From NCBI RefSeq assembly GCF_001677475.2, contig NZ_CP015229.1: a stretch of DNA of 64,000 bases; one strand, 5' to 3'. Under the pieces are notes generated by a model that saw only the letters and a program-made list of their open reading frames with translations, searched no databases and had not been told where the DNA came from. How positions within the stretch are numbered: the first letter of the stretch is position 1; each line of letters opens with the position of its first letter. Below are positions 60,267 through 63,639 of the stretch, piece after piece. The translations under genes were made by a program, and so were the position numbers. The stretch is from Escherichia coli. GTDB lineage: Bacteria > Pseudomonadota > Gammaproteobacteria > Enterobacterales > Enterobacteriaceae.

Positions 60267-60677
60267 ATGTGGAAACGCTTACTTGTAGTCTCTGCAGTCT
60301 CGGCAGCCATGTCGTCTATGGCGTTGGCCGCTCCTTTAACCGTAGGATTTTCGCAGGTCGGATCGGAATCCGGCTGGCGCGCAGCAGAAACCAATGTGGC
60401 GAAAAGTGAGGCCGAAAAACGCGGAATTACGTTGAAAATCGCCGATGGTCAGCAAAAGCAGGAAAACCAGATTAAAGCGGTACGTTCCTTCGTTGCACAA
60501 GGGGTGGATGCGATCTTTATCGCTCCGGTGGTTGCGACGGGTTGGGAACCGGTATTAAAAGAGGCGAAAGATGCCGAAATCCCGGTCTTTTTGCTCGATC
60601 GTTCCATCGATGTGAAAGACAAATCTCTCTATATGACCACTGTTACTGCTGACAACATCCTCGAAGGTAAGTTATGA
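60267..60677 (+). pseudogene. ytfQ: ytfQ 5' fragment (galactofuranose ABC-transporter periplasmic binding protein), truncated by IS insertion
   Basis: Signal peptide plus first ~135 residues; reading frame runs into IS end and stops at TGA 60675-60677. Confidence 0.85.
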
Positions 60678-60765
60678 GACGACAATAACTCAGTCCGCCT
60701 GGCGCCGATTATTCTGGCCGGTTTTGTAACCTGAGTGTCATTTACATGATCCAACAGGAAATGGC

Positions 60766-62265
60766 GTGACGCTCAATACTTCTCAGGTCAGTTACTATAT
60801 GACTCAGCGTAAGAAAGGTATAACTCAGCATATCTCGGCCATGAAGGCTGGTATCTCAGTCCGTTCTGGTCGTCGGATCGAAAAAGGAGAGTGGGCAAAA
60901 AACAGTGTTCGGCACTGGCGCACACGCAAAGATCCTCTGGAAGCTGTGTGGGACAGCATGCTTGTTCCTCTGTTGAAAGAGAGGCCGGCTCTGACACCAA
61001 CAACTCTACTGGAGATGCTACAGGATAAATATCCCGGCCAGTACCCCAACAGCCTTCGAAGAACAATGCAACGGCGGGTTCGCGAATGGAAACTACAGTA
61101 TGGTACAGAGCAGGAGGTCATGTTCCGCCAGCAACATCAGCCCGGCCTGCGAGGCCTGTCGGACTTTACTGAACTGAAAGGTGTAGTTGTCACCATCGCC
61201 GGTAAGTTGTTGGCGCATAAGTTGTATCACTTCCGTCTGGAATGGAGCCACTGGAGCTGGATGCGGGTTGTTCTGGGTGGTGAGAGCTTCTCTGCTCTGG
61301 CTGAAGGCCTGCAGGAAGCCCTCGGACAACTGGGCGGAGTGCCGGTAGAACATAAAACGGACAGCCTGAGGGCAGCATGGAAACAACAGGGCGAAGATGG
61401 ACGCCGCGAGCTGACTGAGCGTTATGCTACTCTCTGTCAGCACTACGGAATGCAGGGCGTACACAATAATGCCGGTCGGGGCCACGAAAATGGCTCGGTT
61501 GAAAGTGCCCACGGACATCTGAAAAGGCGTATCTGTCAGGCGCTGATACTGCGGGGCAGTAACGACTTCAGCACCATAGAAGAATATCAGGCCTTCATCA
61601 CTCAGCAGGTTATGCGGCACAACCGTAACAATCAGGATCTGGTCAAGGAAGAACGTCTTCATCTGAAACCGCTGCCGCTTCGTCGCAGTGCTGACTATGA
61701 TGAGCTGACTGTGAGGGTTAGTCGCAGCAGTACCATCAATGTGAAGCACGTCGTCTACAGCGTACCTTCCCGGCTTGTAGGTCAACTGTTACGGGTCAGG
61801 TTATGGGACGATCGTCTGAGCTGTTACGTTGGCAGCAGCGAGGTCATGAGCTGCCCTCGCGTCAGACCAGAAAAAGGGAAGACGCGGGCCCGTCGTATCG
61901 ACTTCCGACATGTGATCGACAGTCTGGCAAAAAAGCCCGGTGCGTTCTGCCATGCAACGCTGAGAAATGACATCCTGCCGGACGATGAATGGCGGAGGCT
62001 GTGGCGTCGCTTATGTAATCATCTGGAGCCCGATATGGCAGGAAGGCTGATGGTACATGCCCTGAAACTGGCTGCAGGATACGACGATATCTCAGTCGTG
62101 GCAAAAGGTATGGAGCAGATGCTGAATACCCCGGGAAACGTGGATCTGCACCGGCTGATGCGCTTCCTGGGTATAAAAGAAAAGGCGTTGCCGGTAGTCA
62201 ATGTGATACAGCATAACCTGAGCAGTTATGAGCAACTACTGCGTGGCAAGGGAGGTTCGCAGTGA
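60766..62265 (+). CDS. istA: IS21-family transposase IstA
   Basis: 499-aa ORF from an apparent GTG (AGGA SD) or 488 aa from ATG 60799; N-terminal HTH and integrase-like catalytic region. Confidence 0.85.
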   Translation: MTLNTSQVSYYMTQRKKGITQHISAMKAGISVRSGRRIEKGEWAKNSVRHWRTRKDPLEAVWDSMLVPLLKERPALTPTTLLEMLQDKYPGQYPNSLRRTMQRRVREWKLQYGTEQEVMFRQQHQPGLRGLSDFTELKGVVVTIAGKLLAHKLYHFRLEWSHWSWMRVVLGGESFSALAEGLQEALGQLGGVPVEHKTDSLRAAWKQQGEDGRRELTERYATLCQHYGMQGVHNNAGRGHENGSVESAHGHLKRRICQALILRGSNDFSTIEEYQAFITQQVMRHNRNNQDLVKEERLHLKPLPLRRSADYDELTVRVSRSSTINVKHVVYSVPSRLVGQLLRVRLWDDRLSCYVGSSEVMSCPRVRPEKGKTRARRIDFRHVIDSLAKKPGAFCHATLRNDILPDDEWRRLWRRLCNHLEPDMAGRLMVHALKLAAGYDDISVVAKGMEQMLNTPGNVDLHRLMRFLGIKEKALPVVNVIQHNLSSYEQLLRGKGGSQ

Positions 62266-63017
62266 GCAATATCCATCACCTTGAACATAGCCTGCGTAAA
62301 CTACGCCTGACACGAGTTGGAGCTGAATGGCACGCTCTGGAAAAACGAGCGCTGGCAGAAGGCTGGACACCATCGCGCTATCTTCTGACGCTATGCAATG
62401 AAGAACTCCTGTGGCGCGAGAGTGAAAAACTGCGTCGTTATAAAAAGGAGGCCCGGTTGCCAGTTGCCAAAACGCTGAGCGAATACGACTTCAGTCAGGT
62501 GCCGGAACTGAATGGAGCTCAGTTCCGGCAACTCTGTGAAACGACAGACTGGGTTGATGCAGGAGAAAACGTTCTGCTGTTCGGAGCCAGCGGGTTGGGG
62601 AAAAGCCATCTGGCGGCAGCGATCGTGGATGGCGTAGTAGGTCAGGGCTACCGGGCCCGGTTCTACAGCGCAGGAGAGCTGTTGCAGGAACTACGTAAAG
62701 CCAGAGCTCAGTTGAAACTGAATGAGCTGCTACTGAAACTGGATCGCTACCGGGTGATAGTGGTGGATGATCTTGGCTATGTCAAACGCGATAGTGCCGA
62801 AACGGGTGTGCTGTTCGAGTTAATAGCGCATCGCTATGAACGTGGGAGCCTGGTGATAACCAGTAACCATCCGTTCAGCATGTGGGGCAGCATCTTCGTG
62901 GATGAGACTATGGCGGTGGCTGCGGCAGACAGGCTGATCCATCACGGATATATGTTCGAACTGAAAGGGGAAAGCTACAGGAAAAAGACAGCGAAGGCAG
63001 TAACAAGCGCGACTTGA
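62262..63017 (+). CDS. istB: IS21-family helper ATPase IstB
   Basis: 251-aa ORF with Walker A GASGLGKSHLA and Walker B IVVDDLGY; apparent GTG start overlaps istA stop. Confidence 0.9.
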   Translation: MSNIHHLEHSLRKLRLTRVGAEWHALEKRALAEGWTPSRYLLTLCNEELLWRESEKLRRYKKEARLPVAKTLSEYDFSQVPELNGAQFRQLCETTDWVDAGENVLLFGASGLGKSHLAAAIVDGVVGQGYRARFYSAGELLQELRKARAQLKLNELLLKLDRYRVIVVDDLGYVKRDSAETGVLFELIAHRYERGSLVITSNHPFSMWGSIFVDETMAVAAADRLIHHGYMFELKGESYRKKTAKAVTSAT

Positions 63018-63082
63018 TGTCGCCCTGAAGGGTGCGGCCAGTATAGTTGGCGCGAGTCGGCAAAACTAGTTGACGTCTAATA

Positions 63083-63639
63083 GTAAGTTGATTGGTGACT
63101 GGCTGGTAAAAGAAGTCAACGGCAAACCGTGTAACGTGGTTGAGTTGCAGGGGACGGTTGGGGCAAGCGTTGCCATTGACCGTAAAAAAGGCTTTGCCGA
63201 AGCCATTAAGAGTGCGCCAAACATCAAAATCATCCGCTCACAGTCCGGTGACTTCACCCGTAGTAAAGGCAAAGAAGTGATGGAGAGCTTTATCAAAGCG
63301 GAAAACAACGGCAAAAACATCTGCATGGTTTACGCCCATAACGACGACATGGTGATTGGCGCAATTCAGGCAATTAAAGAAGCGGGACTGAAACCGGGCA
63401 AAGATATCCTCACGGGTTCCATTGACGGCGTGCCGGATATCTACAAAGCGATGATGGATGGCGAAGCGAACGCCAGCGTTGAATTGACGCCGAACATGGC
63501 AGGCCCCGCTTTTGACGCGCTGGAGAAATACAAAAAAGACGGCACTATGCCTGAAAAGTTGACCCTGACCAAATCCACCCTTTACCTGCCTGATACTGCA
63601 AAAGAAGAGTTAGAGAAGAAGAAAAATATGGGGTATTGA
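63083..63639 (+). pseudogene. ytfQ: ytfQ 3' fragment
   Basis: ..KLIGDWLVKEVNGKPCNVV.. through the C-terminus; in frame with no own start apart from the IS-end ATG at 63070. Confidence 0.85.

Follow-up and report, generated by a model that had tools for sequence, protein, structure and literature searches.

The periplasmic protein that binds galactofuranose and arabinofuranose for the YtfQRT-YjfF (GafABCD) ABC importer of Escherichia coli is the product of ytfQ (gafA). The function of YtfQ and the ytfQRT-yjfF operon have been described (PMC10191376). In the 64,000-nt stretch of E. coli DNA analyzed here (the window), ytfQ appears to be split by an insertion sequence, which raises the questions of whether the gene is truly interrupted, by which element, and what becomes of the transporter. 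Our analysis makes it highly probable that a copy of ISEc10 recently transposed into ytfQ, leaving a stub and a null YtfQ, with predicted loss of the importer. The insertion is genuine but unremarkable, a gene knock-out by a known element in a known target, and it reveals no new element, mechanism or biology. The features of the locus are compiled in Table 1.

Table 1. Features of the interrupted ytfQ locus, in coordinates of the window
Feature	Position	Strand	Remarks
ytfQ 5′ fragment	60267..60672	+	codons 1-135 plus base 1 of codon 136; NF041827 positions 2-138
Target duplication, left copy (GTAAGT)	60667..60672	.	comparison with 8 other ISEc10 copies; sister empty site
ISEc10	60673..63082	+	ends 5′-TATGAGACG...CGTCTAATA-3′
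Left terminal inverted repeat	60673..60720	+	units L1 60677-60696, L2 60700-60719
istA	60766..62265	+	499-aa transposase, GTG start
istB	62262..63017	+	251-aa AAA+ helper ATPase, GTG start
Right terminal inverted repeat	63035..63082	+	units R2 63036-63055, R1 63059-63078
Target duplication, right copy (GTAAGT)	63083..63088	.	comparison with 8 other ISEc10 copies; sister empty site
ytfQ 3′ fragment	63089..63639	+	remaining codon 136 to stop; NF041827 positions 135-320
ytfQ-ytfR spacer	63640..63951	+	312 nt, REP-like palindromes, unchanged relative to sister
ytfR start	63952..64000	+	ATG 63952; L029 ytfR at 16613 maps here

Identity and ends of the element

The preliminary description of this DNA had placed an istA/istB element of about 2.4 kb near codon 135 of ytfQ. 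The insertion is indeed one intact copy of 2,410 bp, oriented as ytfQ and located between the first and second bases of codon 136. A megablast search returned hundreds of E. coli records that share common element boundaries (60674-63082 in the window) and carry the label 'IS21-like element ISEc10 family'. The nucleotide sequence is 99.9% identical to the OkiPb01695 copy (3 mismatches in 2,409 bp) and 98.5% identical to the CFT073 copy (36 mismatches in 2,409 bp), the latter of which is also called ISEc10 family by RefSeq. The name ISEc10 is based on the RefSeq annotation of these near-identical copies. By the ISfinder convention, an isoform shares at least 95% nucleotide identity with the named element, and the identity to the CFT073 copy, lying above this value, argues for an ISEc10 isoform.

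The two genes lie on the same strand between terminal inverted repeats at the same internal coordinates as in RefSeq-annotated copies, and the TGA stop of istA overlaps the GTG start of istB (GTGA). Assignment to the IS21 family, also proposed earlier, held in profile searches: IstA scored 226.4 bits against NCBIfam NF033546 (curated cutoff 160; profile positions 2-293 of 294), and IstB scored 266.7 bits against NF038214 (cutoff 200) and matched Pfam PF01695 (IstB_IS21) at 1.1e-61. IstB has a Walker A motif, GASGLGKS, at residues 108-115 and aligns over residues 11-243 with IS5376 IstB (PDB 8q3w; E=3.7e-45), in which GASGLGKSH pairs with GPPGIGKTH (Walker A) and VVDDLGY with IIDEMGY (Walker B). 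For IstA, a Pfam scan detected a Mu-transposase-type beta-barrel (PF22483) at residues 311-366 and no rve match, and phmmer against PDB gave no sequence match even at E<=10. The DDE triad was therefore not mappable by alignment, and the candidate residues D133, D199 and E246, plus K253, were read by eye (spacings 65 and 46; motifs SDFT, KTDS and VES).

The terminal inverted repeats are imperfect, with 34 of 48 nt matching (71%), and each end contains two reiterated units of ~20 nt in an identical 23-nt phase. The units agree at 12 of 20 positions within one end, a level attained by 0.3% and 1% of shuffles, and at 16 of 20 between L2 and R2, in keeping with the reiterated imperfect repeats first noticed by inspection. 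Terminal 5′-TG...CA-3′ dinucleotides are common in the IS21 family but not strictly defining. They are absent here, and since all nine ISEc10 copies have the ends given in Table 1, this is a trait of ISEc10 as a whole.

The target duplication had been reported as 7 bp, GTAAGTT. However, a T precedes ATGAGACG in all eight other ISEc10 copies compared, and counting this T as an IS base gives clean duplications of 5-7 bp at seven of them. The last T of the supposed duplication is therefore base 1 of the element, coinciding with the next target base, so that the IS spans 2,410 bp, with a perfect 6-bp duplication, GTAAGT, on either side. Target duplications of the IS21 family range from 4 to 8 bp. 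By analogy with studied IS21-family elements, the IstA transposase would have paired both repeat-bearing ends of one intact ISEc10 copy, and the AAA+ ATPase IstB would have captured the target DNA within ytfQ. Staggered cuts 6 bp apart would then produce the duplication, which is itself observed.

Authenticity and age of the insertion

Copies of an IS are repeats that assemblers can misplace, and apparently at least five identical IstA copies are present in the same genome. The element might thus have been misplaced into a ytfQ that is continuous in the real genome, but the chance of such an artefact is practically negligible. The element is flanked by the perfect 6-bp duplication. The independent draft GCA_002516285.1, which shows no difference from the window along 6,468 bp, has a contig that crosses from ytfQ into the IS and includes 57 nt of its left end. 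In other drafts from this lineage the assembly is interrupted precisely at the junctions, one draft ending at 60670 and another beginning at 63086, and in sister drafts that lack the insertion it is unbroken across the locus. Because independent drafts break at both junctions, the structure is not a misassembly; together with the junction-bearing draft, these breaks contradict a continuous ytfQ at this point.

The preliminary description had also suggested looking for an intact ytfQ in other isolates. The rejoined gene has an unbroken, full-length alignment in 5,422 of 5,426 complete E. coli genomes; no ISEc10 was found within ytfQ in any of the 5,426. Moreover, the near-isogenic sister assembly GCA_016118575.1 has an empty site (in L029), GAAGGTAAGTTGATT, with a single GTAAGT copy. 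Compared with the window, this assembly has 2 SNPs in the 15,749 bp to the left of the site and no mismatch in the 912 bp to its right (63089-64000). No complete RefSeq genome is closer to this lineage than 1.6% divergence. The insertion is polymorphic in a single, rare lineage of E. coli and arose recently: the two duplication copies are still identical, neither IS gene is damaged, ytfQ shows no further lesion once rejoined, and a near-isogenic genome with 2 SNPs in ~16.7 kb is empty at the site. The earlier view of a relatively recent event is thereby upheld.

An exact look-up of the 136-aa YtfQ stub returned 126 matching blocks. An insertion hot spot at codon 136 was considered and rejected, as most of these blocks are artefacts of contig ends or gaps in unrelated backgrounds; they end ...GGCAAGTTGAT or reach Ns without IS sequence. 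Among the stub blocks, a real junction occurs only in L002 and places similar to L002.

The nearby cpdB gene carries a nonsense mutation that is linked to ytfQ::ISEc10 and leaves a CpdB stub of 303 aa. Neither this stub nor the 189-aa 3′ ytfQ ORF had an exact match in the searched collection. The insertion, the cpdB stop and the several identical ISEc10 copies might together reflect ongoing IS expansion, early gene decay and niche specialization. We consider this unlikely; if it were true, the loss of furanose-sugar uptake would have been selected rather than neutral. The insertion and the cpdB stop codon would be handy sub-lineage markers for epidemiology.

Consequences for YtfQ and the downstream genes

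The 5′ ORF of the split gene now spans 60267-60677 and ends ...EGKL* via the IS bases TA+TGA, and its product is a 136-residue stub comprising the signal peptide and ~38% of the mature protein. The 3′ fragment, which retains the stop codon (63637-63639), has no signal peptide, native start or promoter. Both pieces are recognised by NF041827, the YtfQ equivalog model, over the profile positions in Table 1. When the IS and one copy of the duplication are taken out, ytfQ is again an open frame of 957 nt and 318 codons, whose mature product shares 296 of 297 residues with crystallised YtfQ (PDB 2VK2; E=3.5e-193). As 38 of the 40 codons differing from the nearest ytfQ allele are synonymous, this excess points to past purifying selection on ytfQ. 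Because the stub is truncated and the 3′ remnant lacks both promoter and signal peptide, the sequence shows YtfQ to be null. On established knowledge, the importer depends on its binding protein and would be non-functional regardless of ytfRT-yjfF transcription. Only a mild phenotype is expected, given the further galactose and arabinose uptake systems of E. coli. For annotation, ytfQ should be marked here as a pseudogene disrupted by ISEc10, with GafABCD predicted to be non-functional.

The start of ytfR, described earlier as intact, is so, lying in the segment that is identical to the sister assembly. The window stops 49 nt into ytfR, and the remaining operon was seen in the sister assembly only. 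The main effect of the insertion might nonetheless be polarity, with IS terminators silencing ytfR-ytfT-yjfF, rather than the missing binding protein. ytfQRT-yjfF is a single operon (PMC10191376), translation could be uncoupled by a 2.4-kb insert that brings a premature stop, which would allow Rho-dependent termination, and lpp expression is reduced 6-10 fold by adjacent ISEc10 insertions (PMC7482066). In contrast to the IS terminators assumed in the preliminary description, our scan found none that is convincing on the + strand: the sole candidate is weak, with a 5-bp stem within istA (60943-60957), and the remainder of the 7 sites (3.4 ± 1.8 in shuffles) are on the − strand. In addition, translation of istA and istB, which share the strand of ytfQ, would oppose Rho. 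Since loss of YtfQ should by itself disable the transporter, polarity is not required, and its role as the main effect is doubtful.

Far less probable is a regulatory insertion, in which an outward promoter in the IS right end activates the downstream genes, rather than a simple knock-out. A −35-like TTGACG at 63069-63074, 9 nt from the right tip, faces outward, and such promoters are frequent in IS elements (PMC10122671); in abutted ends 1-3 bp apart, TTGACG would lie 16-18 nt from GACAAT of the left end. The flanking ytfQ sequence, however, has no −10-like hexamer 16-18 nt past TTGACG (TGGTGA region), and the downstream genes would be useless for uptake without YtfQ. A promoter scan of 59900-64000, including 63000-64000, gave no + strand site; as it missed even the promoter of ytfQ, the scan says little on promoters. 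We favor the simple loss of YtfQ as the main consequence of the insertion.

Comparison with known IS21-family elements

The copy in ytfQ has the same aligned length (2,409 bp), ends and istA/istB coordinates as the ISEc10 of CFT073, and differs from it at 4 of 499 residues in IstA and 1 of 251 in IstB. Other ISEc10 copies are likewise flanked by 5-7 bp duplications. Only the insertion site distinguishes this copy from known ISEc10, the few point differences being those of an isoform.

With IS5376 and IS21, the family prototypes that have been studied structurally, it shares the istA-istB layout, short target duplications, a beta-barrel after the catalytic core (PF22483), and terminal inverted repeats with two repeat units at each end, L1/L2 and R1/R2, such reiterated units being a feature of the IS21 family (PMC10122671). 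Unlike in these elements, IstA is 499 aa rather than ~400 aa and could not be matched pairwise by sequence to a solved structure, and the ends are 5′-TA...TA-3′ instead of carrying the CA dinucleotide. The 6-bp duplication also differs from the 5 bp of IS5376.

ISEc10 transposes in the laboratory in CFT073, where laboratory-selected insertions flank lpp (PMC7482066), and a natural insertion is known in the afa/dr promoter of ST131 (PMC8764528). The exact IstA variant seen here is found in many prophage, plasmid and chromosomal contexts. In these cases as in ytfQ, ISEc10 lies in or near a chromosomal gene whose function is lowered or, as predicted for ytfQ, abolished. Whereas the lpp and afa/dr insertions are intergenic and alter expression, the ytfQ insertion is intragenic and truncates the protein. 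ytfQ::ISEc10 is one more natural example of ISEc10 being currently mobile.

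The interrupted ytfQ gene and its product

The ytfQ frame is open only to position 60677, where it ends ...ILEGKL*, and restarts in frame at 63089. The two pieces match the YtfQ equivalog model NF041827 (NCBIfam) at positions 2-138 and 135-320, in agreement with the preliminary description, which had an istA/istB element interrupting the gene. Without the IS and one copy of the target duplication, the rejoined ytfQ comprises 957 nt (318 codons), and its mature product is identical to the crystallised E. coli YtfQ (2VK2) at 296/297 residues. As follows from the sequence, only the signal peptide and about 115 of the 297 mature residues are left of YtfQ; the 3′ remnant lacks a signal peptide.

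The ytfQRT-yjfF (gafABCD) operon encodes YtfQ as its galactofuranose/arabinofuranose-binding component (PMC10191376). From established knowledge, an importer relying on its binding protein should be inactive without YtfQ, and the loss of function is explained without polarity on ytfRT-yjfF. Such polarity is possible, but the terminators that the IS had been thought to carry were not borne out by a terminator scan, which gave only one weak candidate on the + strand, inside istA. No outward promoter was predicted from the IS by a promoter scan; its right end contains a −35-like TTGACG at 63069-63074. The following ytfQ-ytfR spacer (63640-63951) spans 312 nt in the window and 139 nt in strain E2865, and contains REP-like palindromes, GCCGGATAAGGCG...CGCATCCGGC, and a GC-rich element at about 63840-63880.

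Features of the interrupted locus and of two other loci in the window
Feature	Position	Strand	Description	Basis
ytfQ start	60267	+	ATG	sequence
ytfQ stop codon	63637-63639	+		sequence
ISEc10	60673-63082	+	2,410 bp, 5′-TATGAGACG...CGTCTAATA-3′	comparison with 8 other copies
Target duplication	60667-60672 and 63083-63088		GTAAGT, 6 bp	comparison with 8 other copies
istA	60766-62265	+	499-aa ORF, GTG start	NF033546
istB	62262-63017	+	251-aa ORF, GTG start overlapping istA TGA stop	NF038214
Left-end units	L1 60677-60696; L2 60700-60719		~20 nt, 23-nt phase
Right-end units	R1 63059-63078; R2 63036-63055		~20 nt, same 23-nt phase
cpdB	45451-47403	−	premature in-frame stop at codon 304 (46492-46494)
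Probable accessory cluster	~29581-38065	−	seven same-strand genes

Identity of the element

The assignment of the element to the IS21 family was confirmed by NCBIfam models: the 499-aa ORF scores 226.4 bits with the IS21-family transposase model NF033546, above its curated cutoff of 160, and the 251-aa ORF scores 266.7 bits (cutoff 200) with NF038214, the model for the IstB helper ATPase, and also matches Pfam IstB_IS21 (1.1e-61). By megablast, the element was matched in 898 of 5,426 complete E. coli genomes, near full length in 525, on chromosomes and plasmids alike, and all among the matches listed are annotated as 'IS21-like element ISEc10 family', which provides its name. Copies in OkiPb01695 are 99.9% identical (3 mismatches) and the copy in CFT073 is 98.5% identical (36 mismatches), the CFT073 proteins differing at 4/499 residues in IstA and 1/251 in IstB. 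RefSeq copies carry istA and istB at identical coordinates inside the element. On the grounds of this near-identity and the shared coordinates, the element is an intact isoform of ISEc10, which transposes in CFT073 under laboratory selection (PMC7482066).

The exact IstA variant of the window recurs in prophages, on plasmids and at chromosomal sites, in many unrelated settings. Exact protein look-up placed no fewer than four additional identical IstA copies (ANO88235.1 among them) on the E. coli contig that also encodes the window's TamB (ANO92179.1); this contig is probably that of the source genome, which if so has at least five.

Junctions, age and lineage of the insertion

Of the 5,426 complete E. 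coli genomes, 5,422 align with the rejoined ytfQ over its full length and without a break; this IS was found within ytfQ in none of the 5,426, and no place in them covers ≥80% of the interrupted locus. The alternative that the interruption is a misassembly was weighed against same-lineage assemblies, retrieved by exact look-up of the window's TamB protein. In the sister GCA_016118575.1 the site is empty and reads GAAGGTAAGTTGATT; this assembly is separated from the window by 2 SNPs in the 15,749 bp left of the site and none in the 912 bp right of it. In GCA_033753315.1, which is window-identical, a contig ends at 60670, and in GCA_031299685.2 one begins at 63086. In GCA_002516285.1, window-identical over 6,468 bp, ytfQ continues into the left end of the IS for 57 nt. 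The drafts thus give independent support for each junction, which for practical purposes rules out misassembly.

Among the contigs read, the site is empty in roughly 13-20 and interrupted in 3-9; therefore, the ytfQ::ISEc10 allele is polymorphic within a very tight clade. The perfect duplication, the intact IS genes, the absence of a second lesion in the rejoined ytfQ and the synonymy of 38/40 codons differing from the nearest E. coli allele indicate a recent event, as had been proposed. We conclude that the insertion is real and recent, and that both the IS and its target, a non-essential transporter gene, are already known. This is ordinary biology, of value for annotation and for marking the lineage, but of low general interest.

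Across the 5,422 complete genomes, identity to the rejoined ytfQ peaks at 95.8% and is 90-95% in 4,055, while the adjoining tamB-ppa stretch reaches 98.7%. Given that nearly all codon differences are synonymous, this low identity shows that the synonymous divergence of ytfQ is unusually deep for the species. The best identity between the window and any complete RefSeq E. coli genome is 98.4-98.7%, and over the first 24 kb even the nearest one reaches only 98.4%, so the source lineage is rare and poorly represented. The premature stop in cpdB, encoding 2′,3′-cyclic-nucleotide phosphodiesterase, lies in the context ...VVDL*LSND... and leaves ORFs of 303 aa and 337 aa. The empty-site sister has a different base at 46494 and an intact 647-aa CpdB, whereas the stop is also present in a draft whose contig breaks at the ytfQ junction; both lesions therefore mark the same sub-lineage.

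The ytfP-ppa spot is variable. In the window's lineage nothing lies between the two genes (59048-59426), other E. coli contigs have a MazE/PemK-type toxin-antitoxin pair or a 490-aa gene there, and another sister assembly has a P2-like prophage directly after ytfP. The probable accessory cluster encodes an MFS transporter (D-galactonate transporter subfamily), an enoyl-CoA hydratase, an SDR reductase, a 690-aa FAD flavoprotein (fumarate-reductase/aspartate-oxidase type) and a 513-aa CoA-transferase; two of its proteins have no NCBIfam match.

Ends of the element and comparison with IS21-family prototypes

The ends were fixed by setting the flanks of eight other ISEc10 copies against those of the window copy. 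A T precedes ATGAGACG in all eight. When this T is assigned to the IS, seven of the eight have clean duplications of 5, 5, 5, 6, 6, 7 and 7 bp; when it is left out, those copies have none. The T therefore belongs to the IS, which sets the boundaries here. The direct repeat of the preliminary description stands, but its length is 6 bp rather than 7 bp; GTAAGTT was read because the first base of the IS by chance equals the next target base.

The element ends form an imperfect inverted repeat of 48 nt (34/48 matching). The reiterated imperfect repeats noticed earlier correspond to two units per end, with identities of 12/20 within each end, matched by shuffles in 0.3% and 1% of trials, and of 16/20 between L2 and R2. 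IS21-family TIRs are built with two repeats at each end, neither of which is dispensable for integration in vitro (PMC10122671). By analogy to the studied family members (PMC10122671), IstA tetramers would synapse two repeat-bearing ends, and IstB-ATP would capture and bend the target DNA and activate IstA; staggered strand transfer followed by repair would then generate the short duplication.

The alignment of IstB residues 11-243 with IstB of IS5376 (8q3w; E=3.7e-45) shows conserved Walker A and B motifs. IstA of ISEc10 had no detectable sequence match among solved structures; it exceeds the 400-aa IstA of IS5376 by about 100 aa. In the IS21 and IS5376 prototypes a CA dinucleotide carries the reactive 3′-OH, whereas ISEc10 ends without CA: the termini are 5′-TA...TA-3′ in the window copy (60673-60676 and 63079-63082) and the eight others. 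Because it is common to 9/9 copies, the missing CA end is a trait of ISEc10 and not of the window copy.
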